Below are positions 2,137 to 24,462 of a stretch of 44,786 nt of DNA, piece by piece. Position 1 is the stretch's first letter. Each line of letters opens with the position of its first letter. Position numbers and translations under genes: made by a program. This DNA is from a phage. Under the pieces are notes generated by a model. The model searched no databases and was not told where the DNA came from. It saw nothing but the letters and a program-made list of their open reading frames with translations. The DNA lies in NCBI GenBank assembly GCA_012646845.1, contig GCA_012646845.1_4707.2. One strand, 5' to 3'.

Positions 2137-2586
2137 TTATCCCTTGTTGGATTCGTCAATATACTTGGTGTCGTAAGACAAATGCTGAATTAATTTTCTA
2201 GGTCTGATGAATATACGACATGTGATAAACACATCAGGATCGTATTGTTCCACGCAACGTCCGAAGGCTCGTTTTGCGGACTGACGCATCAGGGTTAATT
2301 CCTGATCGTTCATCTCATCATCAAATTCGATGTGTATCGTGATTTTATCGGGAAATAAATAGATAGAGTAATCGCTACCAATACCGCCGTCGTCAAAGCG
2401 ATAATCGTTGTGGCAATGGTGGAGTTTACCTTCGTGTATCGTCTGGTACCACCCGACGATACTATCAAGACCCATACCCAGGTGTCCGAATGCTTGGTTA
2501 ATAATATCCTCGACGACGGATGCGGGCGTGGGACCATGGAATAGACGATCTAAGCGCTTTTTCATTGATTTGGTTTTCTCGTTCAT
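2137..2586 (-). CDS. hypothetical protein (149 aa)
   Basis: ORF track; co-oriented with neighbours. Confidence 0.6.
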   Translation of the reverse strand: MNEKTKSMKKRLDRLFHGPTPASVVEDIINQAFGHLGMGLDSIVGWYQTIHEGKLHHCHNDYRFDDGGIGSDYSIYLFPDKITIHIEFDDEMNDQELTLMRQSAKRAFGRCVEQYDPDVFITCRIFIRPRKLIQHLSYDTKYIDESNKG

Positions 2587-2608
2587 GATTTTTTTCCTGT
2601 TATAATCG

Positions 2609-2657
2609 GCATACAGCCCTTCCCCGGCCTTGACGGCTAGGGAAGGGGCTATGCTAC
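2609..2657 (-). terminator. GCATA-flanked GC-rich hairpin (family member)
   Basis: GCATACAGCCCTTCCCC ... GGGAAGGGGCTATGC inverted repeat immediately after stop of 2662..3060. Confidence 0.45.
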
Positions 2658-2661
2658 GTTG

Positions 2662-3060
2662 TTATGCTTCGCAATCAGCTGAAGGCGTCGCGCCTTTCTT
2701 ACCAACGATACGCCAAATCCGACACGCTGGGTAATGGTTAACCTCTAGAGAGCAAGGAATGTTATATTTCTCTTCCAGCGCATAAAGACATTTCGTTAGC
2801 TGCTCCAGCGCGTTCTCGTCGTGTCGTAACGCGTGGTGGCCTAATCGATGTTGGTCGTTCTTTATATACGCCTCGAAGAGAACATGTTGGCGATGTACGC
2901 TGACGTTTACAGCCTCGAGTATAGCTTGGTCGAGCATACGACTAAAGCACATCAACGAGTCAGATACGTTTTCTCGCTTAACCAGATCGATCATGGCGGG
3001 AATATACGAATGGTCGATGTTATCGATGACCGCTTTAGCGACGGAATCCGCAATGTTCAT
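2662..3060 (-). CDS. hypothetical protein, tandem paralog 1 (132 aa)
   Basis: N-terminus MNIADSVAKAVIDNIDH... closely matches neighbour MSIVESIVKAVNDNIDH... Confidence 0.7.
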   Translation of the reverse strand: MNIADSVAKAVIDNIDHSYIPAMIDLVKRENVSDSLMCFSRMLDQAILEAVNVSVHRQHVLFEAYIKNDQHRLGHHALRHDENALEQLTKCLYALEEKYNIPCSLEVNHYPACRIWRIVGKKGATPSADCEA

Positions 3061-3095
3061 CTTTTAATCCCTAGTTTGTTATTGATCACGTATAT

Positions 3096-3491
3096 TTACT
3101 CTTTGACGTCGGTTGTTGTTTCGGTGTGTTTCTCGCTGCTGATGTACCAGAGCAGGTACGCTGGGAAAAGATTGACCTCTAAGCTAAATGGGGTATTGTA
3201 TTTCTCTTCCATTTTACAGAGATGTTCTTTAAGTAAATTTCTCGCGTCACTATCACCACGAACAGAGTGCCAGTCTAGTTCTTTGTTCTCCTTTACCAGG
3301 ACCTCTACGATGATACGTTGCTCGTGAACCTCGGTTTTCACAGTGAAAAGTAAATCGCTGCTATCAAAACGGGTAAAACGAATGTATGAACCAGGTGTTT
3401 TTTCTTGTTTAATAATATCGATCATGGTAGAAATGCGCGGATGATCGATGTTGTCGTTAACAGCTTTAACGATGGATTCTACAATGCTCAT
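3096..3491 (-). CDS. hypothetical protein, tandem paralog 2 (131 aa)
   Basis: Shared N-terminal and central motifs (EEKYN.P.SLEVN) with 2662..3060. Confidence 0.7.
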   Translation of the reverse strand: MSIVESIVKAVNDNIDHPRISTMIDIIKQEKTPGSYIRFTRFDSSDLLFTVKTEVHEQRIIVEVLVKENKELDWHSVRGDSDARNLLKEHLCKMEEKYNTPFSLEVNLFPAYLLWYISSEKHTETTTDVKE

Positions 3492-3615
3492 TTTTTATCC
3501 TTAATGTTATCGATTTGGAAATATTACTTATTTACTGTTTTCTTTATCAACAGTTGTTACCCACGACATGATGGCGGGATGAAAACAGAGCGTGAACGTA
3601 ACCTTCGCGTCGTAT

Positions 3616-4098
3616 TTAAACGCGCAGTTCGCTAGCCGAGTATCGAACGTTTTCCTTTTCGTCTGGAGAGTATTCCATCGTGTAGAATTCATAACCATCG
3701 GAAAACTTGAGTGTTAATGTAATAGGGAAATCGCACGGCATAGCTGATTTCGTAAATGCGTTATTAGCAACATCAGCCAACCGACGTATAGCATCAGTCC
3801 CGCTGACGCTGAACGGTAGTTGTATGTTGATAAGGATACGATGCTTGTAAACATAGAAAACAACGGTACTGTCGAGATAAACGCTGTGGAACGGTATTGT
3901 TGGGATGCGTTCCACGATGGTAAAATACGTCCCGTCATTATCGCTATGTCCCACCGACCAAATATCGGATTTGCGTAGATTTTGTTTGAGAGATTCGATG
4001 CTTCGAGTGACGGTATCAACAACAGGTGTAACGTAAGTGTCTTTATGCGAGTCGAAAAGTTCGTTGACGTTAGATTCGAATGAATACGTTGTTGCCAT
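3616..4098 (-). CDS. hypothetical protein (160 aa)
   Basis: ORF track; co-oriented gene block. Confidence 0.6.
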   Translation of the reverse strand: MATTYSFESNVNELFDSHKDTYVTPVVDTVTRSIESLKQNLRKSDIWSVGHSDNDGTYFTIVERIPTIPFHSVYLDSTVVFYVYKHRILINIQLPFSVSGTDAIRRLADVANNAFTKSAMPCDFPITLTLKFSDGYEFYTMEYSPDEKENVRYSASELRV

Positions 4099-5402: not shown

Positions 5403-5828
5403 TTAATTCAGTGACGCATATAACGCATAACGACTGTAGATCTCAACCGCCGGTCCGTTATGGGTTAACAGACCATCCTGGTTGTAATACTGGAAAAATG
5501 AATAACGTTTGTCGAAGTGATAAACAAAAGCAATGTCTTTGCCGTCAAAACCTGTGATGCGTGGTCTGTTTTTATCTAGCAATGCTTTGACTTTTAACAG
5601 TGTTGCCGCACGTGCTTTAACGTTAGGGATCAAGCCATCGCAATCGATATAAACTGTGTAACCTGTTTCAGATGTTGCGACGGTCGTATTGCGATTGATG
5701 CGAAAGATTTTTGTTTTGTATGTATCATCTTCAAGAATTGGGTTTTGTTTTTCGTATTTTCGTTTACGCAGAAATTCTACAACGGTAATATAGTTAGCGG
5801 TGATATGTCCGGTTATAGCTTGTAACAT
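5403..5828 (-). CDS. hypothetical protein (141 aa)
   Basis: ORF track; preceded by conserved leader GGATGTCAAG-ATG. Confidence 0.65.
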   Translation of the reverse strand: MLQAITGHITANYITVVEFLRKRKYEKQNPILEDDTYKTKIFRINRNTTVATSETGYTVYIDCDGLIPNVKARAATLLKVKALLDKNRPRITGFDGKDIAFVYHFDKRYSFFQYYNQDGLLTHNGPAVEIYSRYALYASLN

Positions 5829-5940
5829 CTTGACATCCTTTTATATTGGATTGGTTGCAATTGTCTTAAATAGATGATAAGATATTTTGCTCTTATCACT
5901 AAGGTAATATAGCCGTGAAATAGACTGCGTTAACAAGAAA
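5829..5940 (-). promoter_or_regulatory. Conserved promoter/leader module, copy 1
   Basis: Minus strand reads TTTCACGGCTATATTACCTTAG - hairpin (TGATAAGA..TCTTATCA) - CAATCCAATATAAAAGGATGTCAAG-ATG; same architecture at 29786-29889. Confidence 0.45.
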
Positions 5941-5948
5941 TAAAAACA

Positions 5949-6000
5949 GCATAAAACCTCCTCCCCCATCCTTCAAGAGGACGGTGGGAAGAGGGAGAGA
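5949..6000 (-). terminator. GCATAAAA-flanked GC-rich imperfect hairpin (family member)
   Basis: Lies immediately after stop of 6003..6404 on the minus strand. Confidence 0.4.
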
Positions 6001-6002
6001 GA

Positions 6003-6404
6003 TTAAATGTCGTGGACGGCATTGCCGTTTAACCAGCAATACAGCTTAACGCGACACGGATACCGCTTCGTTGCAGTAGCCATTTCATCGCGTAAACGTT
6101 GGTAGATTTCATCCTGGTGTTCACGATCAATGGGGTAATCAGCCCAACATTCGATCATGACGTCACCATTAGTCAGAATCGTCGTACGCATCCTGTCCTG
6201 GACTCGACGATCTTTCCCGGCATTAGGGAAATACATTCCTTCAGTACGAATAAGGTCGCCGCAGGGCATGACTAACCATTCGTTCGTTTTGCCGGTATTC
6301 TTATAATCCATTACGGCTTGCATTGCAGTGTCAACGCTAAAAGAAACATAATTCCAAACGGATGTCCAACGATAGATTGCGGGTTGTTCAAGTGTTTCGT
6401 TCAT
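6003..6404 (-). CDS. hypothetical protein (133 aa)
   Basis: ORF track. Confidence 0.6.
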   Translation of the reverse strand: MNETLEQPAIYRWTSVWNYVSFSVDTAMQAVMDYKNTGKTNEWLVMPCGDLIRTEGMYFPNAGKDRRVQDRMRTTILTNGDVMIECWADYPIDREHQDEIYQRLRDEMATATKRYPCRVKLYCWLNGNAVHDI

Positions 6405-6451
6405 GGAGTGCTTGTCCTATTTTTTATTTTCTGCACAGGATAAATTCAACG

Positions 6452-6498
6452 GCATAAAGCCCTTCCCTGCCCTTATATGGGGCGGGAAGAGTTTATGA
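6452..6498 (-). terminator. GCATAAA ... TTTATGA flanked GC-rich hairpin (family member)
   Basis: GCATAAAGCCCTTCCC ... GGGAAGAGTTTATGA; between 6620..7258 and 6003..6404. Confidence 0.45.
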
Positions 6499-6619
6499 CC
6501 GCAATGAGAATCTCTCACGACAAGCTCACGACGATTATCGCATCACCCCGCGAGTGAGGGAGATCAGGATCACCTCCTACGTCGTAACGACAGTAATCCC
6601 GTTAACGTCGCCTTAGGCA

Positions 6620-7258
6620 TTATGCGAAGCGACGCATGTAACCTGCCAGATAGTTACGTGTATCGAAGTAAGCAATTTCAGGAATTGCGATATTAAGGTC
6701 GATAGCACGGATTTCAACTTGGCGACGGCTTTCATCATAGATCGCATCCATCAGACGCAGTACTGTCAGGAAAGCCATGCGGGTATGGTAGTCCAGCGGC
6801 ATGTTATCGATACCACGATACAGATAACGGTTTGCGTTAAACGCCCCTTCGCGGTTATCTTTCCAGATCTTCAGAATATCAGCAAAGGCGGTGCGGAAAA
6901 CCTCAGGATTATCCACATCCAGTAACGCACGGAAAGCAGACATTAAAGACCGCTGATGACGGATCAACGACTGCGGTGTTTGCGGCATGGTCGGACCCAT
7001 TTCTTCCGCATATTTCTGGAACGGAGCAACCAGGGTTGCGGCACGAGAAGCCACGATAGAAACAGCAGGCGATTCTTTCACCGCCGGTTTCGCAGGCTTT
7101 TCTTCAACGGCGGTTTCCTTCTTCTCAACAGCAGCCGTTTCCGGTTGTGCTACAACGTTGTTGATTGGAGCAGCAGCCGCACCATTTTCCACGGTGGTCT
7201 CTACTGCTGTAATCTTTTCTTCCATTTGTGCGGAACGTTGGTCTTTATTCTTGCTCAT
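6620..7258 (-). CDS. hypothetical protein (212 aa), Ala/Glu/Lys-rich N-terminal low-complexity region
   Basis: ORF track. Confidence 0.65.
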   Translation of the reverse strand: MSKNKDQRSAQMEEKITAVETTVENGAAAAPINNVVAQPETAAVEKKETAVEEKPAKPAVKESPAVSIVASRAATLVAPFQKYAEEMGPTMPQTPQSLIRHQRSLMSAFRALLDVDNPEVFRTAFADILKIWKDNREGAFNANRYLYRGIDNMPLDYHTRMAFLTVLRLMDAIYDESRRQVEIRAIDLNIAIPEIAYFDTRNYLAGYMRRFA

Positions 7259-7283
7259 GTCTATTTCCTTTTGTTTAACAAGG

Positions 7284-8585
7284 TTAACTAATATAAAGTT
7301 CAGGATCGTAAGGCGCTAACGATACACTGGCGTTATGCATTGCTTTCATCATAGTGTTCATGAAAACGTTGTTTACACCGGTGATCTCTGCCCCGATCGC
7401 GTCTGGGGTTGGAGCCATCGCGTTACCGCAACAGGTAGCACAGTATTCCAACGGACCCGCTTTACAGCGTTGAGGATCGCGTAACTTGATGGTTTGTCCT
7501 TCCAAGGAAGCGAATAATTCAGCATCAATAAGTTTAAGCGCTGCGCCGTCGATCATGTAACGGCCGACAAGTAGCTTATCTTTGATGTGGTCGCGGTTTA
7601 CCGTGAACAGAATATGTTCTTGGGTGCCGCAGTCGTCCATCGTGATTTTAAGGTTCTGTGTTGCACGTTGCGATTCTTTAGCCGTTTGTCCGGCTAAAGC
7701 GGTCAACGCACCACGTGAGAACGAACCAGCACGTGCACTGTTGTTGTACTCCGCCCAATGGTCGACGCGCATCCCTTCGGCCAGGCTGTGTGTGATAACG
7801 TTACGTTTACCAGGGTCAACGAAGTCGGCTTCAACCCCCATCATGATGTGCGTTTTCTTTCGAGTATTACCGAAACTCTTACCGGGGTTAATATAGAACC
7901 CTTCCGATTCATCGCCCTTAAAGGATTCCTTATCCATTTTGGTTAGCGTGGCTTCGAGTTTGATCAGTTCTTCAGGGGTGAACTTACCTTCCTCTTGTAA
8001 GCGTGCCAACTCTTTATCACGATAGGCAATAATATCATCATCGACCGTTAACGCTTTATCGCTCATTGAAGGCACAATTAAGCGGTTGATAGCGGTTAAT
8101 GCGCTGATATTGTTGGTGAATTTCTTCACTTCGCTTGCGTACAGCGGACCAATCGGACGCTCGTTAGGATCGGGTATTCCCTCTTCGGGATCATCTGCTA
8201 CGCGCGGCGCAATCAGCGATTCTAGTGTGCCGCTGGTTAACCGTCCTGCCTGATATTCAATCTGAATACCGAAAGCGTCATAAAGGACGTACATATTGAA
8301 CAACGCTTCACCGAAGGTTGTGGTGGTTGTGTTCTTAACCGACGGTAGATCGCCAGGCGCAAGCTCCAACGGATCCCAGAAATTCAACAAGGGTTTTGTT
8401 GGTTCTGTTTCCCATTGGTGTTCTTCACCGTCGATGGTAACCGTAACGATGTTACCTTGACGACGTAATTTAGGCTGATACTTCTCAGCGCCCCCTTCCG
8501 TAAAAGCAAATGCGTCGTTAATCCACTCAAGATAACGGTAATGCCCTTCACGCAACGCGTAAAGGAAATAATCACGAGGTGTCAT
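7284..8585 (-). CDS. hypothetical protein (433 aa) with C-terminal Cys cluster (CATCCGNA)
   Basis: ORF track; long uninterrupted frame. Confidence 0.7.
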   Translation of the reverse strand: MTPRDYFLYALREGHYRYLEWINDAFAFTEGGAEKYQPKLRRQGNIVTVTIDGEEHQWETEPTKPLLNFWDPLELAPGDLPSVKNTTTTTFGEALFNMYVLYDAFGIQIEYQAGRLTSGTLESLIAPRVADDPEEGIPDPNERPIGPLYASEVKKFTNNISALTAINRLIVPSMSDKALTVDDDIIAYRDKELARLQEEGKFTPEELIKLEATLTKMDKESFKGDESEGFYINPGKSFGNTRKKTHIMMGVEADFVDPGKRNVITHSLAEGMRVDHWAEYNNSARAGSFSRGALTALAGQTAKESQRATQNLKITMDDCGTQEHILFTVNRDHIKDKLLVGRYMIDGAALKLIDAELFASLEGQTIKLRDPQRCKAGPLEYCATCCGNAMAPTPDAIGAEITGVNNVFMNTMMKAMHNASVSLAPYDPELYIS

Positions 8586-12639: not shown

Positions 12640-12687
12640 GCATAACCCTCCTCCTGGCCTGAACCAGGAGGAAGGGTGTTTTTATGC
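12640..12687. terminator. Bidirectional terminator hairpin between convergent genes
   Basis: GCATAA-CCCTCCTCCTGG-CCTGAA-CCAGGAGGAAGGGTG-TTTTTATGC; perfect extended inverted repeat. Confidence 0.65.
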
Positions 12688-14196
12688 CGCGAAGGTTGGC
12701 TTGTTGCTGGCTTCCCAGGCGGTAGCACCGGTGTCGAAATCGGCATGTTCTGTTACGTTGGAGACGTTCCAACCGGAGATATCCTGGTTGAACGCCTTTG
12801 CGTCCTCAAACATGCTCCGCATCGAAACAATATTAGACATGTTCCAGCTACCGATGTTCTGGTTGAACACAACAGCACTACGGAACATGCGATCGGCATT
12901 CGTTACGTTCGACATATCCCAACCGATGACGTTAGGATCGTTGAACTTCGAACAGCCTAAGAACATCGAGTTGGTGCTGGTGACAGCAGTAGGCAGCTCT
13001 GCCGGGACCGACGTCAGGTTGCTAGCACGTTCGAATGACCAGTTACGGACATCATTCTGTTTCCCGAAGCTCAGAACCGCGAGCAGCGCGTTACCGCCGA
13101 GGTTGATTTTCAGGGATTTAAGTCCGCTCTCTTTCCAACCAATCTCGATGCGACCGGCTTGCGTAACGTCGATGCCCGTATTCGCACCTTCGACAACGTC
13201 TACCTTCACATTGTCGTACGAGAGACGATACCAGAGTTCTGGGTCGACGCCGCCGGTAAGAGGAATATCACCATCGCCCAATGGCACGTCAAACGTGTCG
13301 GAGATAACAGAAAGATCCAGCGCACCCGGCTGCACGGTAGCGGTGAAGTAGGTGAAGTCCTCTGGCTCGGTCACGACCTCATGGTAGCGAAGATACACAT
13401 CGCCAGCCCAAGATTCCGTTTCGGCGTAATCCGTGCTAAGATGCACTGCCTTGTATCCGTCATCAAGGTCGTGCACGGCGATTACATACGCATATTCGAG
13501 CAACGTCGCGAACTCAGTGCGGGTGGTTTCATCGTACCCACCCGCTGAGACCAGACGGTCGATAATGTCGTTACGTAACGCATCATCGATAGCGGCACCG
13601 ATTTCCATCGTCGCCACGTTGTGCTTCGCGACGATCTCATCCCAATCTAACGACAGCGACAGCAGACTCAATGAGGCAAGAGAGTCGCTGTTGTGTAAAT
13701 AGTTGAGTGTATAAAGGTCGGTTTTAGCGATGATGGTCACCAGGTCCAACGTATCGTTGGCGACGGTGAACTTGAGTTTACCTGCCCATACGTAGGAGGC
13801 ATCCGCTGCGTTAAGTTCGAGTTCCTTAACGCCGCTGTCTTCAAAGGTCACTGCGGTTTGCAGATCGGCTTCCAAGAAGTCAACGGTTTTGTCTAACGAC
13901 ACCCCATACCGTGCAGCTAACTGATCGACCACAGCGCCGATGGTGGTATCTGCGTTAACGATGAAGCGCAGAGGAAGACCCAGGAAGTTCTTGGTAAGAT
14001 CTCGGCGAACATAGACCAGGGTTTGTTCGTTGAAGTAGGGGCTACCCTCTAACGGTTTGATGCGGACACTCACCGCATCTGTAGCGTCGTCCTTAGCGAC
14101 AAACTCAAACGTCACGTCCTGTTCGGTCAGCGTAAGCTGGTTCTTACTGTTAACCAGTTCCAGCAACTCATCTTTCCAGTGTTGTAATAACTTCAT
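12682..14196 (-). CDS. putative receptor-binding/tail fibre protein with C-terminal DUF285 (BspA-like) repeats
   Basis: C-terminal repeats GWDMSNVTNADRMF / FNQNIGSWNMSNIVSMRSMF / FNQDISGWNVSNVT; N-terminal domain shared with 15364..17976 and 23321..23848. Confidence 0.75.
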   Translation of the reverse strand: MKLLQHWKDELLELVNSKNQLTLTEQDVTFEFVAKDDATDAVSVRIKPLEGSPYFNEQTLVYVRRDLTKNFLGLPLRFIVNADTTIGAVVDQLAARYGVSLDKTVDFLEADLQTAVTFEDSGVKELELNAADASYVWAGKLKFTVANDTLDLVTIIAKTDLYTLNYLHNSDSLASLSLLSLSLDWDEIVAKHNVATMEIGAAIDDALRNDIIDRLVSAGGYDETTRTEFATLLEYAYVIAVHDLDDGYKAVHLSTDYAETESWAGDVYLRYHEVVTEPEDFTYFTATVQPGALDLSVISDTFDVPLGDGDIPLTGGVDPELWYRLSYDNVKVDVVEGANTGIDVTQAGRIEIGWKESGLKSLKINLGGNALLAVLSFGKQNDVRNWSFERASNLTSVPAELPTAVTSTNSMFLGCSKFNDPNVIGWDMSNVTNADRMFRSAVVFNQNIGSWNMSNIVSMRSMFEDAKAFNQDISGWNVSNVTEHADFDTGATAWEASNKPTFAA

Positions 14197-14203
14197 TTTG
14201 GCC

Positions 14204-14380
14204 TCATTCTAAGCGTGGCATTGAGGGAACCTCGTGCCGGTGTTTTCGGAATTGTGTGTCGATAACCTCACGAAGCTTCAGGGCATCGTGAAGAGTCGAC
14301 GAGTTATACAACGTGAGCGTTACCGTCATGCGGGTGCGTTCACGCGTGTATTCTTTCCGACTGATGATGTCCGTATGCTG
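14204..14380 (-). pseudogene. Partial duplicate of the 3' half of gene 14389..14763
   Basis: Frame encodes ...TVTLTLYNSSTLHDALKLREVIDTQFRKHRHEVPSMPRLE*, paralogous to ...TVTLELFNKSTWVDAYRLREVIDGQFRKHRHEVPSMPKK... of the adjacent gene; DNA-level similarity evident. Confidence 0.45.
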
Positions 14381-15363: not shown

Positions 15364-17976
15364 TTAAGCGTCTGGTGTAAAATCAAAAGGAACGTCCGTA
15401 CGAATGATATCATAACGTTTTCCTAGGAAATAGAACTCTTCGGGAACCTGACCGGGAATGATGCTATCGCCGATGAACTGTGGGTATGCCCAGATGTACT
15501 GAGTGAGTCCTTCGAACATATCCAGGTTATTTGCGTGGTTACCCATGATACGTTTCCAGAGTTCGCGTTTATACGGTGTTTTGACATCGAACCCATAAAG
15601 CGGTGCGAGGTCTTCGCCTGGAACAAACCCCAGGTAATAGTGGATCTGACTAACCGGGAACCCAAGCGTGTCTCGCGGAATGGTGATCGCTCGCTCAGCC
15701 TTGGTGACATGCGTCTCAATAATCCAGTCGTAGCACTCCGAATAGAACCGATCGAATTTCTCTGGATTGTACCACGCTTTGGGAAGATTCAGTTTCTCTG
15801 TGAACGCGTTCGACATGATCGTCGGCAAGAACGGAAGAACGCCGGTTTTGATCTGCGTGTATTTCGATTTTACCCGATTGACCAGATTCCAGCAAGCAGA
15901 GCCGAGCTGATCGTTGCAGAACTCAACGTACAGATCGTAATCCCCACCCGATAATGGATTATTAATGTCGCCGATATCGGCGGCGTATTTGTTGGGGTAT
16001 CGGTTATTGAAAGCCAGTTTGGTTTGGTAATCGTAGATACACGGTTTGTTGTTCGCCGTGTTGATCCACCACCAGGGTTCACCTACTTGTACACAAATGT
16101 CTTGGACATGCGGGTAGATGATATCAGCAAACGCGGTTAACACATCCCCTAACCACGTCATCGCATGTTGGTTGCATGGCGACAACAACCAAGACGGCGG
16201 CGTATATCCGGTTGCTGCGATGTTTCCTTCCCAATCCTGCTGCGCCCATTCGAACGGGCATGCGGTACTCATCAATTCGTAACTTAAACTGATGGTGATA
16301 GAGAAATGATGTTTTGCAGCATATGCGGCGAACGCTTCATGCCACGCGATACAGGGTGGATTTAATACATCCGTGGTGTTCACCAGTAACTTACCCGCAC
16401 TTGGCGTCCAGACAGTATCGTAGAAATGCGACATGCCAACATAATGCACTAATTCATCCTGATACCCTGCATAAACCAGGTTTTCAAATACGCGCTCCGG
16501 CGTGATGTTGTAATGGTCATCGTAAGCGGTTATCGCACGAAGTTCGTGTGGTGTACAGTGGTGGCGACTAACCGTCATTTCCTGATACACCCCATCGATA
16601 GGAAGAATCTCGAGGGTTAAACCGAGGTCGATTGGCGTTTCCAGGTAGGTCGTTTCAGTCGCATCTTCCTTATAATGTCGAGAACTCATACTGAACATCA
16701 GCGACGTGACCGATTCGAGTTCGATAGGTTCGTCAGCATAGAACCCCGCCATCGCGTCGTTGAAATCGATCGTTACGATTGCGCTTGTACCGTCTTCAGA
16801 GACGTCGGTCGCATATCGGGTTAATGAGATATACTGACGGCTATCGTCTTTGTGTACGATGGTTAGAACCGGCGGGTGTTCGGTATCTGCAAAGTTACGC
16901 TGATCGCCAGTAAATGTGATCTTCGCTTTAAAGATCAAACCGAGCAACGACGTCATTGGATCATACGCAACACAACCGTGATCCAGCGTATCCGTTGTCC
17001 GCCATTCTATCCCGACCAACCCGTTAGCGGTATGGCATCGCATATACGCATTAAGTACCATGTCTTCACTGACAACCGCGAAGTTCTCTGTTGACTGACC
17101 GTTGATAATCCAATACATCGGTTGCCAGAGGTTACGCGTACCTTTTGCGTAGCGGTAGGTTGGTGCGCCTTTAGGGTTGCCGTTATTGAGATGGAATACG
17201 GCAGTACCTTGGTAATGATCGTTCGTGTTAATCGGAACAGTGTACGCGTCGCCGAGGTCCGTACGTTCGACCTTCGTGACAGTTGCGTTTTCAAACAGCC
17301 TGCGTAGTGTAGGAAGACCAATATCATCAGGCGCGTTTTCTCGACGAATTGCGTCCGCGATGCGATGGGCTAGGGCGGGGTAAATGGTCTCACCCTGCTG
17401 TAAGTTTGCAAGACCTACAAAGCGATCGGGGTTGATACCGGCAATCAATAACTCAACATCGCCCCTCGTTCTATCATCATGGAGGTATTTCAGTCCAGTA
17501 AGATCGAGGTGTCGAATTAACGACAACAGATTGTACTTACGGTTTTCAACAGTCAGTACAAGATCACCTGCCCAAACCAAACTTCCCTCATCCACCATTA
17601 CTCTAACGGATTGGCGGCCTGTGGTAGACGTTGTTGTCGTTTTATTTAATTGTCCTTGTAGGAAGTCGGTTGCGAGGTCAAAGGCAACGCCGTAACGGTC
17701 AGCGACCGCCTGCATGATTTCACGTAACTGGGTATCTTCTTCAATGATGATCTTGACAGGTATTCCCAAGAACGCTTTGGCGAGGTCTCGCTTAACCATC
17801 GAGACGAATACGGATTTGTAATATCGGCCTCCATCTTTCCCTTTAAAAAGAATGGAGGTTGTTTCGGGCGACGATAGAACACGTGCAAATTCAACATCGT
17901 CGGAAGTAAGAGAAAGTCCGTTTTTCTCGTTGACCAATCTTAGTATTTCATTTTGCGCGGTTTCATGCAACTTCAT
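15364..17976 (-). CDS. large putative receptor-binding protein/tailspike (870 aa)
   Basis: N-terminal domain (VKRDLAKAFLGIPVKII) shared with 12682..14196 and 23321..23848; long Trp/Tyr-rich C-terminal domain. Confidence 0.75.
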   Translation of the reverse strand: MKLHETAQNEILRLVNEKNGLSLTSDDVEFARVLSSPETTSILFKGKDGGRYYKSVFVSMVKRDLAKAFLGIPVKIIIEEDTQLREIMQAVADRYGVAFDLATDFLQGQLNKTTTTSTTGRQSVRVMVDEGSLVWAGDLVLTVENRKYNLLSLIRHLDLTGLKYLHDDRTRGDVELLIAGINPDRFVGLANLQQGETIYPALAHRIADAIRRENAPDDIGLPTLRRLFENATVTKVERTDLGDAYTVPINTNDHYQGTAVFHLNNGNPKGAPTYRYAKGTRNLWQPMYWIINGQSTENFAVVSEDMVLNAYMRCHTANGLVGIEWRTTDTLDHGCVAYDPMTSLLGLIFKAKITFTGDQRNFADTEHPPVLTIVHKDDSRQYISLTRYATDVSEDGTSAIVTIDFNDAMAGFYADEPIELESVTSLMFSMSSRHYKEDATETTYLETPIDLGLTLEILPIDGVYQEMTVSRHHCTPHELRAITAYDDHYNITPERVFENLVYAGYQDELVHYVGMSHFYDTVWTPSAGKLLVNTTDVLNPPCIAWHEAFAAYAAKHHFSITISLSYELMSTACPFEWAQQDWEGNIAATGYTPPSWLLSPCNQHAMTWLGDVLTAFADIIYPHVQDICVQVGEPWWWINTANNKPCIYDYQTKLAFNNRYPNKYAADIGDINNPLSGGDYDLYVEFCNDQLGSACWNLVNRVKSKYTQIKTGVLPFLPTIMSNAFTEKLNLPKAWYNPEKFDRFYSECYDWIIETHVTKAERAITIPRDTLGFPVSQIHYYLGFVPGEDLAPLYGFDVKTPYKRELWKRIMGNHANNLDMFEGLTQYIWAYPQFIGDSIIPGQVPEEFYFLGKRYDIIRTDVPFDFTPDA

Positions 17977-17998
17977 TGAAAACCTCAGCCCTTTAGAA

Positions 17999-18640
17999 TT
18001 AGATGTACTGCTTACCGCCCACGAAGGAAGTTAGCCAGTTCCCACTGACAAGCTGTGATACCCAGCCAGGCACTGCCCTGCCATTCTGACTCATCACATT
18101 ACCACACCAACCAGGGAATCCGGGACGGATATAATAGAAAGTTAAATTGTAGAGATGGCAATTCCATACTGCAACGTTATGTTTACGAGCAACCGCTTTA
18201 AAGACAAACGCAACGGGTAAAGGCGACGATAGCAATTCGGTCACGGGGACGGCCGACCAGTTCGCATTTGCGTTCCACGGTTGCCAGGTATGGCTACGCG
18301 AGTCGCAATATACGTTACCGTTGTTACCTCGCCCACCCGCATTCCACCATAGCGACGGACTCATGTTCTTAAGTGAGGTAAATTGCTGTGGTGGAATATT
18401 CGGAATAATAACAGGGTTGACGCCTTGCCCATTTTTCTTTTCTTTTGCGTTCACATACCCGCTTATCGATTCGAGGTATTTGACACCAGGATAATTGTTC
18501 TGGACTCGTGTCGCAATATCACGGACATCAAACGTCCAGCAGATCATGGTGTTGTAGTAAGCATCGGTGTTGTCGTACCATGCGTTACCATCTTGTAAAC
18601 GTGCGCCACTATTCGGTGTTTTATCTGTGCTTATAGCCAT
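17999..18640 (-). CDS. hypothetical tail-associated protein, paralog 1 (213 aa)
   Basis: C-terminal 40 aa (RPGFPGW.GNVMSQNGRAVPGWVSQLVSGNWLTSFVGGKQY) identical to neighbour apart from one residue. Confidence 0.7.
   Translation of the reverse strand: MAISTDKTPNSGARLQDGNAWYDNTDAYYNTMICWTFDVRDIATRVQNNYPGVKYLESISGYVNAKEKKNGQGVNPVIIPNIPPQQFTSLKNMSPSLWWNAGGRGNNGNVYCDSRSHTWQPWNANANWSAVPVTELLSSPLPVAFVFKAVARKHNVAVWNCHLYNLTFYYIRPGFPGWCGNVMSQNGRAVPGWVSQLVSGNWLTSFVGGKQYI
18035..18103. repeat. 69-nt near-identical direct repeat, copy 1
   Basis: Matches 18792-18860 with a single mismatch. Confidence 0.85.
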
Positions 18641-18746
18641 GGTATTGTCCTATACTACGATGATTGAGGTATCGAATGTCGGACGCCTGGTGTCGTCTGG
18701 TAGTACATACAGAAACACCCGCAGATAAAACAATAACTCCCATCAA

Positions 18747-19412
18747 TTAAATTGATGTTAGATACTGCTTACCTCCGACAAACGATGTCAACCAGTTCCC
18801 ACTGACAAGCTGTGATACCCAGCCAGGCACTGCCCTGCCATTCTGGCTCATCACATTACCAGCCCATCCCGGAAAACCAGGTCGGAAAATATATACTTGA
18901 ATATGTGTTAAAGCGTTATCATTACCTCCACCAACAGCAACATTACGACGTCCGGATGATGGGAAATATTCTTTTAAGAACAGGGGATCGTTTGCCAATA
19001 AAGAAGCAGGCCAAGGATTAGCGGATGCGTCAACATCGAATTCGGTCCATCGCCATTTGCGTCCGGTATCGAACCAGGTTGACGTACCGCCACCACGCAC
19101 CGCAAGATTGCGTGCATCACGGGCACTGTATATTGATTCGATGTTTCGCCACCCACCTTTTGCGGCGTTTGCCGCATAGCAAACCGCATTACCACCATTC
19201 TTCTTTTCGTAAACGGTTCGTTTGATATGAACACGGTCGATAAACGCTTCACCGTATTTGTTGACAAGTGTTTGCGCAATATCACGAAGATCGTGCATAT
19301 GAAAGGCGATGTCTTCGTTGTGGAACCACGTTGTCGGGTTCCAAACGGTGCCGTTTGGTTCGGCACACATCGATCTGATATTGTTGCGCTGATTAATCGC
19401 GATAAAGCCCAT
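18747..19412 (-). CDS. hypothetical tail-associated protein, paralog 2
   Basis: Start moved to ATG at 19412 (GAGGTG RBS; track start at 19475 lies inside an upstream hairpin); N-terminal DLRDIAQTLVNKY aligns with DVRDIATRVQNNY of paralog 1. Confidence 0.7.
   Translation of the reverse strand: MGFIAINQRNNIRSMCAEPNGTVWNPTTWFHNEDIAFHMHDLRDIAQTLVNKYGEAFIDRVHIKRTVYEKKNGGNAVCYAANAAKGGWRNIESIYSARDARNLAVRGGGTSTWFDTGRKWRWTEFDVDASANPWPASLLANDPLFLKEYFPSSGRRNVAVGGGNDNALTHIQVYIFRPGFPGWAGNVMSQNGRAVPGWVSQLVSGNWLTSFVGGKQYLTSI
18792..18860. repeat. 69-nt near-identical direct repeat, copy 2
   Basis: Matches 18035-18103 with a single mismatch. Confidence 0.85.
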
Positions 19413-19527
19413 GGCCCACCTCGTTTCTATTCTCGAAGGAAATTTCATACGATGACGCCATAACAGCTCCCCCATCCCCCCAACCCGTAAGGGAAGGGAG
19501 GATGTAAGGGAAGGAGGAGCTATTTAA

Positions 19528-20031
19528 TTACTGGCTGACAACCTCAACGGAACTGGGATCGGCGATCAGCGCACGGTCGGTAGAACAATTGAAGAAGACC
19601 ATCCCAACACCATCGCCGTTCGAGTTCAGGGTTGAACTTACGTAAGACAATGTTGGTTTATTCATACGGTAGAAGCGTTCGCTGGTGGTGGTATTGAACC
19701 CCAGATCAACGTAGTCTTTCACCGTGGTGTACAGCTGTGTGGACTCGAAAACGGTTACCGGAGAGTCAACGGTAAACTGACTGCCTTCATCCACAACCAG
19801 AACTTTATCGTTCCAGATTTCAGTGGTTGAGAACTTCGGTTTCCAATGTTCGAATTCCTGGGTTGCGCCCCAGCAAGAATACACAGCGAGATTGCTGTTC
19901 TTCTCGACAGGTTTTAACCCCACCAGTTGTGTCAGGCCTTTATCCAGGTTCGGTAAGCCTTCCAGCGTAGCACACCCACCCAGAGAAAGTACCATCAACA
20001 TACCGAGAATAATCGCGCAAAGTTTCTTCAT
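19528..20031 (-). CDS. lipoprotein (167 aa)
   Basis: Signal peptide with lipobox MKKLCAIILGMLMVLSLGGC. Confidence 0.75.
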   Translation of the reverse strand: MKKLCAIILGMLMVLSLGGCATLEGLPNLDKGLTQLVGLKPVEKNSNLAVYSCWGATQEFEHWKPKFSTTEIWNDKVLVVDEGSQFTVDSPVTVFESTQLYTTVKDYVDLGFNTTTSERFYRMNKPTLSYVSSTLNSNGDGVGMVFFNCSTDRALIADPSSVEVVSQ

Positions 20032-20075
20032 CGTCGGATTTCCTTATGTGTTAACGGAAGTGATTTCCATAGTAA

Positions 20076-20660
20076 TTACACAGCTGTAGGAAGTTCAGGC
20101 CAATCGATATTTGGTGCTGTTGATGTGTCAACGCGGTGCAGAGCCACCCGATACTTTTTCCATGCTGTCAGCATCGACACCTCTTCTTCCGTTGCGATCT
20201 CCAGATCCACAGCATCCTGAAGTGGCGCAATACGATCATTCGCTGCCTGCATCAGACTGTTTTTTGTTTCTTCCGCCTCCCGGACATGGGATTGTTTTTC
20301 CGCATCTGTATCTTTCACCCAGGTTGTTCCGTCCCACTTCTGAAACTCTCCTTCCGGGGATAACCAAGTAGTATTTTCTGGTAACGGACCGAGTTCAGAA
20401 ATAAATAACGCGTCGCCGGAAGCCACATCATAGACGGTTTTACCCCGATGGTCTTCAACAATATACCACGATTCATTTTCACTGTTAAAAACTGCCACAA
20501 AGTCAGCAGGAATTTCCGGTGGGGCGATATCTGTAGAATTAGCTGGTAGTCCCGTATGCGGTGGAATATATGCGTCGCCTTCACCAATAAACTCATTGGT
20601 TCCGGCCAGCAGATTATAAATTTTTATGGTTTGTGGTTCATCACTCATTCTGAATGCCAT
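20076..20660 (-). CDS. tail fibre assembly protein (chaperone)
   Basis: Start overlaps fibre stop (TAATG); sequence resembles Tfa/gpG-type chaperones; position immediately downstream of fibre gene. Confidence 0.8.
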
Positions 20661-23314
20661 TATGCAAGCCTCACGATGTAGTTAAATGCGATGTTTTTGA
20701 CGGTGTTTTCCGCGTTACCCGCGGCGTTAACGGTGATGGTGTGTCCATGCGATCCAATCGCAACCGAGTGCGTATGCGCACCAATACCTACAGTATGTGC
20801 ATGTGCACCGGCACTCGCGGCTGTACCGGACAATGAGTGACTATGAGCGCCAGCAGAAGAAGTGTTGACATCGTATTTAGCATAATCAGGCGACCCACTT
20901 CCCGGAGTACCACTGGTGCCACCTGCGACAAATCTCATCGAGTGGGTGTGTGCTCCAGCCGTGTTTGTGGAACCACTCAGACTGTGCGTATGCGCCCCGG
21001 TGTTATTCGTGGTTTTAGTGCCGTAATCAAACGACGATGTGGTTTTCGTCCCCAAATCCGTACCGGATGCGCTGGCGCTATGGTTGTGCGATTTAATGCC
21101 GTCCTGTTCCTGAGACAATACAGCACGACCACTGGCAGGTTTGCCCTTAATCGTCCAGCCACGCATATCAGGAATAACGCCTGACGGATAAGCCACTGCA
21201 AGTTTCGGGTATACAGATTTGTCAAAAGTCTGCCCTTGCATCAGAGCATAACCAGACGGAACGGTATCTGAAGGCCATGGAATAGGCGTACCAACAGGCA
21301 ACGCTGAACCGCCATCCGAACCCGCATCTTTGGTTGGTATAACGATGTTCGCCGAGCCGTCGAACTCAATACCGTTGATTGTGACAGCCGTTTGCAATTT
21401 CGTGGCTGTCGCAGCGTTACCCGTCGTATTCTGATTACCAACCGCATTGACGCCCGGTAATGCAATATCCGCTGTTCCGTCAAAGGCAACACCACCGATT
21501 TTACGTGCGGTTTGTAGCTTGGTTGCACTAGCGGCGTTACCGCTGGTATTCTGGGTGCCAGCTTTGTTAACACCGGGGAGATCGATGTTAGCAGAACCAT
21601 CGAAGCTGACGCCACCTATCGTTCTTGCGGTAGCGAGTTTAGCTGCTGTGGCTGCATTATTACCCACTTTCAGCCAATCATCCCATGGGCCATCCTGGCC
21701 GTTCCATGCTGCCGTTAAACTACGTACGTAAATATTGCCGGTACGTACAGTGTAACGTTGCGTTCCACCGAATTGTCCGGCAGGGAGCACTTCAAGGTAA
21801 CCTGCGGCATTTGCTTCAGGGAAATTGTGGGCGACGTCCGCGTTCGTTGATACTGGTTTAGACCAAATACCCACGGACGCTTCAACCGGACCGTAAGTAT
21901 TCAGATTTGCGTCGGTGGGGAGCTGTCCTCGAAAACGCTGGAATTGTGTTGCCGATAACCCCAACGTTGTTTGCATGCTTTCAATGCTGGATTGCTGCAG
22001 TAACGTCCGTGCTGTCGACGTAATCACGGTAAGCGCAACTTTATTAACACCGGTGAAATACGGGAGTTTGTCTGCTGATGTCACTAAACCTGAAAAGGCG
22101 GTCAGTAATTCGTTAAGGGGTTGCTTCCCAGCTAACGCATTTGTTACCGTCGTTGCGAAATTAGGATCGCTTCCTATAGCTCGAGCCAGCTTATTAAGCG
22201 TATTTAGCGTCGCTGGTGACGAGTCGATCAGTGCCGTGATCGCACGCATCACAAATTCCGTGTTGGCTATCTGTCGACTGCTATCGTTAACTGCTGCGGT
22301 GGGCGCTGCTGGCGTACCAGTGAATACAGGGCTATTAAGATCCGCCTTGAGGGCGATGAGGCGTTTAAGCGCTTCAACATCAACTTTCAGGTTTTCCCAT
22401 CCGATGAGAGAACCATCACCGTTGGCATGATAACGGTTGTACCAGAAGTCACCGTTAACGCCAAAAAAGAATATACATTTCTCTTCGTTTTGTGGACCGG
22501 AACTATTTCGTGATGAGTCGATATATTTGATTTCAATAAGACCGCTAAACACCACCCCTGGGATTATATTGTTGTCTCCAGCTGACTGTGATACCTGGTA
22601 CATCCCCGGGGTTGCGGCTTTAACCCATGTTAAGAATTCTGTTACTCCAGCGGTACCGCTAAAATTCTTAACGTCGGTAAGTATCGCCCCATAACCGAAC
22701 ATACCGGGTAGAGCCACTCGTCCGCTGGTACGATCACGAATATCTGTCGCAACAACAGGCAATTGTTTACGAACGGCATTAACCGCTTTAGGCGTGGCCG
22801 ATTTTGTCTCGTCGTCGCTATCGGTTTCATTACTTAGAATAGTTAAACCGCGTGTAGCAGTAGTTGCATCAGGAAGAAATGCGTTATCCAACACCTTAAG
22901 CTGTATTGCACTCGTATTACTAACAACGACATGCACCTGACAGTTAAGAACGCTGGTTGCGCCTTCGGCAGGCGTAGGCTTATATCTTTCTGGCGCACTG
23001 CAGACGGCAATCAGAACACCTTGGTCGTCATACAGACCGATCTCACGTACCCAGAACCCACCTTGACTAGCAGGAATAATACCCTCAACGATAATCCTGG
23101 TTGTACTATCGCCATCCGTATGGACATTGGAAACTTCCCCACGATAAACTTCATGGACAAGCGCTGTTTGACTGGTGGTTGGGGTTGGGATCGAACCACT
23201 ACCATCGCCAACGGCAAAGTGTGTGATTTTTAGTTTCTTACCGTCAGGAAGTAACGCTGCAGCGATACGTTCTGCGCCTTTATCGGTAACGACCGTTTTA
23301 TATGCTGTACTCAT
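20660..23314 (-). CDS. tail fibre protein, P2 gpH-like N-terminus, internal repeats, His-rich C-terminus
   Basis: N-terminus [21 protein letters not shown]...[20 protein letters not shown] resembles gpH-type collar domain; ~39-aa tandem repeats ([28 protein letters not shown]); C-terminal GAHTHS repeats. Confidence 0.9.
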
Positions 23315-23871: not shown

Positions 23872-24462
23872 TCAGATTAAATATAAACTTCTTAAACGTG
23901 GAACACGATTCGAGATAAACGTAAACGGCCTTAACGACCGCATAAAATTCCGCGCATACCCTCTATCCCGACAAAGCGAGGGGGGTTTATCCATCGGAAA
24001 ATCCGTAGGAGACCGATAGGTGTTTTCCTGTTGATACGTAAACAAGAAATCGATCCAATGACTGATGTAAGTGAATAGCTTCTCAGGGATAGCTAAACCG
24101 CGATCATGCAGTCCTGCATAAAGCCTCACCGCTGAAAAGAAAGCCCTCGGCTGATAACCAGACCATGCTGTCTGATCGCCGAAGTGGTACATCGTAAAAT
24201 CATTAACTTTCGATCCGCTTGGCGCATCCCAACGATCCCACACGTACGCACTCGCACCCGACCCTAAAACCCCGAATTTCTGATAATACCACTGCTGTGA
24301 GTCATACCAGAAATTCACAACATTCCGAATCATGAGGTCACGTCGTTCAGCCGGTACGTCCATATCCAGGAAGACCCATGGATGTTGGTAGCCAGGATAA
24401 GGCTGACCACGCCAACTGTCGAACGTCAACGCTTCCTCTTGCCATGATGCTTCAGGATACAT
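23872..24462 (-). CDS. hypothetical protein, Trp/Tyr-rich (196 aa)
   Basis: ORF track; first gene after strong terminator. Confidence 0.6.
   Translation of the reverse strand: MYPEASWQEEALTFDSWRGQPYPGYQHPWVFLDMDVPAERRDLMIRNVVNFWYDSQQWYYQKFGVLGSGASAYVWDRWDAPSGSKVNDFTMYHFGDQTAWSGYQPRAFFSAVRLYAGLHDRGLAIPEKLFTYISHWIDFLFTYQQENTYRSPTDFPMDKPPSLCRDRGYARNFMRSLRPFTFISNRVPRLRSLYLI

Follow-up and report, generated by a model that had tools for sequence, protein, structure and literature searches.

Gene conversion and modular exchange are already well known in phage receptor-binding loci. Duplicated bacterial genes, such as tufA and tufB of Salmonella, undergo concerted evolution by short-tract gene conversion, and phages with multiple receptor-binding proteins (e.g., those with branched tailspike systems) attach alternative proteins through a common conserved anchor. 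In T-even phages, the tail-fibre adhesins gp37 and gp38 recombine at conserved motifs (Tetart et al. 1996, 1998, as cited in Trojet et al. 2011, PMC3157838). A literature search turned up no specific account of gene conversion between tail-fibre paralogs of phages.

The locus described here lies within a 44,786-nt stretch of phage DNA (the window), a relative of which, at ~93% nucleotide identity, is Escherichia phage vB_EcoM_Goslar, a 237-kb nucleus-forming chimallivirus (jumbo phage) of E. coli. Two adjacent genes of the window, A and B, encode proteins with divergent bodies and an almost invariant C-terminal motif. Sequence comparisons across the Goslar-like population make it probable that a short gene-conversion tract joins A and B, in paralogs that diverged anciently and whose motif is under protein constraint.

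The A/B locus and its neighbourhood

Gene A was found between homologs of gp086 and gp088, in the same position as gp087 of Goslar (HOV27_gp087, YP_009820772.1), an uncharacterised virion-associated protein with which it shares 93% amino acid identity and the C-terminal motif; Table 1. Beyond the gp088 homolog lie a Caudo_TAP tail-fibre assembly gene and then a tail-fibre gene. The gp86 protein was named in the Goslar paper among the DUF7941 host-recognition candidates. The nucleotide alignment with Goslar spans only 66% of positions 17500-20100. The start of gene B at 19412 is correct, being preceded by a GAGGTG Shine-Dalgarno sequence. A longer open reading frame for B, extending to 19475, was rejected as a read-through artefact, since Goslar has a stop codon there and the spacing between the Shine-Dalgarno sequence and the ATG suits 19412; a 17-residue N-terminal extension of the B′ protein P0003 was dismissed on the same grounds.

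Table 1. Features of the A/B locus and its surroundings (window coordinates).
Feature	Position	Strand	Remarks
Gene A	17999..18640	(-)	213 aa; ortholog of Goslar gp087; jelly-roll body (predicted) and C-terminal motif
Gene B	18747..19412	(-)	221 aa; diverged paralog of A in a variable slot that is empty in Goslar
Putative conversion tract in A	18035..18103	(-)	codons G179-W201; 68/69 identical to 18792-18860
Putative conversion tract in B	18792..18860	(-)	partner of 18035-18103
Motif-coding segment of A	18005..18127	(-)	41 codons; A-type synonymous flanks
Motif-coding segment of B	18762..18884	(-)	41 codons; B-type synonymous flanks
Segment absent from Goslar (37 nt instead)	18693..19417		gene B and part of the A-B spacer; blastn
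gp086-like downstream neighbour	15364..17976	(-)	870 aa; DUF7941 and N4-gp65-like (non-contractile tail sheath protein) TIM barrel; Pfam
gp088-like upstream neighbour	19528..20031	(-)	167 aa; lipoprotein-type signal peptide
Tail-fibre gene (884 aa) with its Caudo_TAP assembly gene (194 aa)	20076..23314	(-)	host-range module; Pfam
Caudo_TAP assembly gene	20076-20660		neighbour of the A/B locus; Pfam

The host-recognition modules of the window look reshuffled relative to those of Goslar. In place of the distal tail fibre and assembly protein of Goslar, which are 1324 and 138 residues in length, the window carries a different pair, and positions 20118-21335 have no nucleotide match to Goslar. A 1.7-kb segment at 12651-14373, which Goslar does not carry, contains an open reading frame (12682-14196, minus strand) for a protein of 504 residues with DUF7941 and DUF285 domains. 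Conversely, the window is devoid of gp093 and of most of gp092 (a 1198-residue DUF7941 “tail protein”), the gap corresponding to positions 104358-108006 of the Goslar record, which fall between window positions 24427 and 24428. A further segment of ~1 kb that is not in Goslar (2671-3650) holds two open reading frames of ~131 residues with no match in Pfam. In the minus-strand spacer past the gp088 stop codon (19476-19527), a G/C-rich imperfect hairpin of the GCTCCTCC...GGAGGAGC type was observed, which is longer than its Goslar counterpart; a consensus terminator scan gave no call there.

The near-identical tract and its origin

An earlier sequence-only reading had described A and B as adjacent paralogs with near-identical C-termini, sharing a 69-nt stretch that differs at one position, in genes that are otherwise far more diverged. 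Each of these observations was borne out. The two proteins are paralogous (BLASTP E=1e-35; 39% identity over 198 residues), and their C-terminal motifs are identical at 41/42 residues (RPGFPGW[C/A]GNVMSQNGRAVPGWVSQLVSGNWLTSFVGGKQY; one residue differs), whereas their bodies, with the C-terminus left out, are only ~26% identical. The single mismatch between the two 69-mers is a synonymous T/C difference in AGT/AGC (18089 vs 18846). The 69-mer occurs exactly twice in the whole window, against a chance expectation of 0, and comparison of the locus with itself revealed a larger direct repeat of 131 nt (18006-18136 vs 18763-18893), with 85% identity and a spacing of 757 nt. The segment of amino acid identity (41 codons, 123 nt) exceeds the tract of DNA identity in length. 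Within this segment, the core differs between A and B at 1/69 nucleotides, and its flanks differ at 8/24 (5′) and 8/30 (3′), nearly always synonymously. A short second patch of identity (18512-18529 vs 19275-19292; 16/18 nt), covering the family-conserved motif FD[LV]RDIA, is too short for a conversion call.

The locus was compared across 23 further contigs and Goslar, yielding ~24 distinct alleles of the aligned motif segment, in which the core was defined as the central 23 codons. Within the 41 codons of identical amino acid sequence, degenerate codons differ between A and B at 14/17 positions in the flanks but at only 1/20 in the core (Fisher p=1.5e-6). In the flanks, one set of synonymous states is found in all A genes and another in all B genes; the synonymous states of the core do not track this split. 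The flank differences between A and B are alike across all genomes with two genes, whereas core differences number 0/69 in the sister contig L016 (QZLZ01001428.1), 1/69 in the window, and 15-18/69 in the seven others (L002, L003, L017, and L019-L022). Thus, full homogenisation was observed in only two genomes, the window and L016, which are closely related.

Comparisons with orthologs gave a concordant picture. The core of window A differs from that of most A orthologs at 10-17/69 positions (3-7 in three close or recombinant relatives), although its flanks differ from theirs at only 1-2/54, and the core of window B differs from that of B orthologs, with L016 left out, at 12-20/69. The nearest neighbours of window A are A orthologs when judged by the flanks (one difference), and window B when judged by the core (one difference). 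The same switch of nearest neighbour was seen between A and B of L016, and between A of Goslar and the B′ allele. The core is the most amino-acid-conserved part of gene A; even so, its divergence between window A and most A orthologs amounts to 17-22%, compared with 6-8% for the remaining gene, as expected from the import of paralog-derived synonymous variants. The PHI test on the 24 distinct alleles gave an observed value of 0.725, compared with a permuted mean of 0.850 (0/5000 permutations), and 65% of the informative site pairs were incompatible. Recent gene conversion, one of the two explanations offered by the sequence-only reading, is thus favoured by the contrast at synonymous sites, the incongruence between orthologs and paralogs, the PHI test, and independent examples in relatives. 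Its suggestion of a “recombination hotspot for module swapping” also fits the mosaic of the motif and the variable B slot.

The window and L016 each carry private substitutions that are common to their own two copies, and in each of the two paralogs they differ from one another at positions 30 and 67 of the core, which indicates at least one transfer after the two lineages split. The core of the window combines A-type with B-type states and has two further states that are unique to it; a third donor allele, or more than one event, may therefore have been involved.

A related history can be read from Goslar, in which the B slot is empty. The spacer upstream of Goslar gp087 contains ATG GCG ATA GCG CGA ACT ATA GGG TTC ACG TCC (MAIARTIGFTS), the first 11 codons of the B′ allele (P0003), of which L002 and L017 have intact copies. 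The 3′ half of the gp087 core carries the B′-type states GCT, TCG, and TCG GGT, an exact match to B′ of L002, and its nearest core neighbours are the B′ genes of L002 and L017 (L002_B and L017_B); its core differs from that of window A at 13/69 positions. The core of the A gene in L024 shows the same B′-type states in its 3′ half. Together, the 5′ remnant and the B′-type half-core point to a former B′ gene in Goslar, which appears from these sequences to have converted part of gp087 and then to have been deleted. Among the relatives, the slot is empty or holds B or B′, and the A gene is of type A1 or A2. In L003, a 98% B is paired with a 68% A2, indicating that the bodies have been reassorted.

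In the mechanism that we propose, the starting point is that A and B are ancient tandem paralogs of the gp087 family, each with a predicted jelly-roll body followed by a motif of ~41 residues. Constraint on the motif would hold the coding DNA of A and B at ~75-85% identity over ~125 nt, so that the motif DNA could serve as a landing pad for homologous recombination between copies 757 nt apart on replicating phage genomes. A tract of ~70 nt from one copy would have replaced its counterpart in the other, so that synonymous differences were lost from the centre of the motif but kept in the A-type and B-type flanks, and at least one further conversion would have occurred in the lineage after its split from L016. 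The tract may have come from intragenomic conversion, or from exchange between non-allelic copies on co-infecting relatives. Recurrence of such events across the Goslar-like population would give rise to the fine mosaic of motif codons.

Several other origins of the tract were considered. One, which we regard as unlikely, is that slots A and B each received one and the same circulating core allele in separate imports, by ordinary homologous recombination with co-infecting relatives. The mosaic of the motif across the population and the significant PHI test would be compatible with such imports, as would the reassorted bodies in L003 and the window-like 5′ half-core of L013, a genome with an A gene only. 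However, two independent imports of the same 69 nt with identical boundaries would be required, and the private substitutions shared by both copies within the window and within L016 make import less parsimonious. The B′-type patches in the A genes of Goslar and L024 require a non-allelic exchange between A and B′ in any case. A simple recent tandem duplication, a diversity-generating retroelement (DGR), or an invertible tail-fibre segment is hardly credible, even though the genes are in tandem beside tail-fibre genes and the repeat lies at their 3′ ends. The divergence of the bodies excludes a recent duplication, and full-length alignment did not reveal the uniform high identity that the sequence-only reading had named as refuting its view. 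The repeats are direct rather than inverted and lie in two genes on the same strand, in contrast to an invertible segment, and a DGR is at odds with a single synonymous T/C mismatch and a peptide that is invariant across the family rather than hypervariable.

The second explanation offered by the sequence-only reading, strong constraint at the nucleotide level, did not withstand the comparison with relatives. A functional nucleotide element in the 69 nt (such as a structured RNA, a regulatory site, or a site recognised by an enzyme) is very improbable: a core hairpin can be drawn at -22 to -25 kcal/mol, but its fold z-scores of only -1.2 to -1.5 are not significant, and compensatory changes that would preserve the structure are not apparent. 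Over the same 69 nt, A and B of seven relatives differ at the 15-18 positions noted above, and window A differs from most A orthologs at 10-17, almost all of these changes being synonymous. Rfam gave no match in 17500-20100, and a promoter and terminator scan revealed nothing relevant. Just as little probability was given to an assembly artefact, in which the assembler would have crossed or collapsed two similar repeats. A repeat of ~70-130 nt at a spacing of 757 nt can tangle short-read graphs; however, the independent contig L016 is equally homogenised with other private substitutions, the flanks on both sides are correctly A-type and B-type, and partial patches are present in the genome of the Goslar isolate. 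Gene conversion between A and B remains the preferred reading, and we consider the tract to be a real, well-resolved, and mechanistically ordinary example of it. The analysis also brought to light the gp087 family and its variable slot, which are of greater interest than the tract itself.

The gp087 family, its motif and its predicted fold

The family motif, PGFPGW..NG.AVPGW.SQL..GNWL..F.GGK.Y (~41 residues), is present in both A and B. Full-length homology places A (93-96% identity to Goslar gp087 and the family protein P0001) and B (E=4e-26 to P0001) in the same family. Word-indexed searches retrieved five other cluster representatives, and a HMMER profile search run in full against 1.84 billion representatives retrieved only 11; the family is very small and specific to chimalliviruses. 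Its distant members include proteins of Serratia phage PCH45 (370 residues) and Salmonella phage SPLA10 (218 residues). The motif is common to all members, down to 21-27% identity, and residues F175, P176, P191, G192, G200, and L203 are invariant in 14 members, down to 21% identity. This family-wide conservation accounts for the identical peptide in A and B by purifying selection on the protein, which keeps the motif near-invariant. The longer homologs carry the motif internally, with another 95-150 residues after it. Scans of A, B, and the remote homologs against Pfam, PHROGs, and NCBIfam matched no family, neither the Caudo_TAP nor the T-even gp38 adhesin profile of Pfam was found in A or B, and the one match in a search of PDB sequences with the profile, to Cas9 (E=0.44), was due to chance.

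Synteny of the locus, within a tail-fibre and host-recognition cluster, is kept in the window, Goslar, and L002-L024. In PCH45, SPLA10, and L029, the gene of this family comes immediately after a 575-residue fibre gene with a Peptidase_S74 chaperone domain. The exception to this location is P0006 in L030, which has no recognisable tail genes adjacent to it. Two candidate associations were rejected. A conserved two-gene module of a gp088-like lipoprotein and a gp087-family gene was discarded, as the upstream gene in L030 is unrelated, and neither gp086 nor the P2-like fibre is an obligatory partner of the motif, as L012 has a B-type gene without either. This more distant relative (ERZ27298684 k141_12685, positions 5715-7587) carries a lipoprotein and a single B-type gene (P0005, 70% identity to B), and is devoid of gp086, the A gene, and the pair of P2-like fibre and assembly-protein genes. 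In L003 (5224-5991), L021, and P0004, the stop codon of B is lost, and read-through into the A-B spacer yields a protein of 255 residues instead of 221. In L002, the contig carrying B′, the A gene (2441-3082) starts with GTG and is interrupted by an in-frame stop (W to *). It may be a pseudogene; if so, one of the two copies would seem to be dispensable.

AlphaFold2 models of A and B were built on an alignment of 14 sequences. The beta-sandwich bodies were modelled confidently (pLDDT 83.7 for A and 78.7 for B). The motif was the least confident region, with pLDDT <50 at residues 190-205 of A and 198-211 of B, and a final strand rejoins the sheet. Prediction of the C-terminal structure, as suggested by the sequence-only reading, thus gave a poorly modelled motif in the monomer. 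The models are beta-jelly rolls of the DNRLRE/CBM96-like type, resembling carbohydrate-binding modules, and match the solved modules 8wab and 7vbo. Sequence identity of A and B to carbohydrate-binding modules is 6-10%, the jelly roll is a widespread topology, and sequence profiles do not support membership in these families; the predicted likeness is therefore one of fold only.

In mass spectrometry of Goslar virions, gp87 was represented by four peptides, with 28.6% coverage and an estimated 13-30 (~19) copies per virion, and the N-terminal gp087 peptide AISTDKTPNSGAR was among those observed (Table S4, 10.64898/2026.04.21.720040). Some contaminants detected in that dataset have copy numbers similar to ~19, such as thymidylate synthase at ~20; the neighbouring gp086, gp088, and gp089 were estimated at ~4.5, ~740, and ~52 copies, respectively (10.64898/2026.04.21.720040). 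The high value for gp088 could reflect a truly abundant virion protein or co-purifying membrane vesicles. The N-terminus of its homolog in the window is the lipoprotein-type signal peptide MKKLCAIILGMLMVLSLGGC. The same 2026 cryo-EM and mass-spectrometry preprint neither models nor discusses gp87; its authors propose that filaments of DUF7941 proteins, bearing carbohydrate-binding domains, lie at the peripheral baseplate, where it leaves much of the density unassigned (10.64898/2026.04.21.720040).

On the basis of the models, the chances are even that A and B serve as alternative accessory proteins that bind glycans, whose bodies would bind host surface glycans with different specificities. 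The role of the motif as a shared virion-attachment peptide, raised by the sequence-only reading, is plausible; the invariant motif would be a docking or assembly element through which alternative heads use the same virion site, probably at the peripheral baseplate or the fibre apparatus. A bolder and more doubtful proposal, offered tentatively, is that the gp087 family is a hitherto unrecognised class of exchangeable accessory receptor-binding heads, with the motif acting both as a docking plug and as a patch of DNA homology for cassette exchange, by which heads would be acquired, lost, and reassorted. If this were true, the motif would dock any head onto the peripheral baseplate or fibre apparatus of nucleus-forming jumbo phages, and cassette exchange at the motif would account for the empty, B, and B′ states of the slot.

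Relation to known systems

The locus is a compact natural case in which protein constraint on a short motif makes a recombination substrate within otherwise unalignable paralogs. The 24 distinct alleles resolve individual conversion patches, and Goslar gp087 carries a molecular fossil of a deleted paralog. These findings mark the gp087 family, which has a variable gene slot, as a candidate component of host recognition. Its Goslar member, gp087, is a concrete candidate for fitting the unassigned chimallivirus peripheral-baseplate density, and the family is a possible target for host-range engineering of jumbo phages.

As in gp37 and gp38 of the T-even phages, as summarised in Trojet et al. 2011, the exchanges map to a conserved motif. 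However, gp38 is a polyglycine sandwich, whereas A and B are predicted jelly rolls that have no Pfam match and are unrelated to it in sequence or fold. In A and B, the exchange takes place between tandem paralogs of one genome, over ~70 nt inside the motif, and the observed outcome is homogenisation of the motif rather than a swap of specificity. Invertible segments, such as those of Mu Gin and P1 Cin, have inverted repeats flanking C-terminal cassettes, in contrast to the direct repeats of A and B. The repeats of DGRs differ at template adenines and encode a hypervariable peptide, unlike the one T/C mismatch and invariant peptide found here. The structural matches also diverge from A and B in this region: neither 8wab (chondroitin-sulfate-binding, DNRLRE domain) nor 7vbo (alginate-binding) has a counterpart of the C-terminal motif.

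Alongside the T-even recombination, the nearest parallel is with duplicated genes of the tufA/tufB type, in which paralogs are likewise closer than orthologs over the tract, and private substitutions are found in both copies; A and B are not homologous to the proteins of either case. The difference is that the tract in A and B occupies ~10% of the gene, and the rest is too diverged to recombine, so that the two genes keep distinct bodies. Branched tailspike systems likewise combine a short conserved module with divergent bodies in adjacent host-recognition genes; their anchor is N-terminal and has a known partner, whereas the module of A and B is C-terminal, or internal in the longer homologs.
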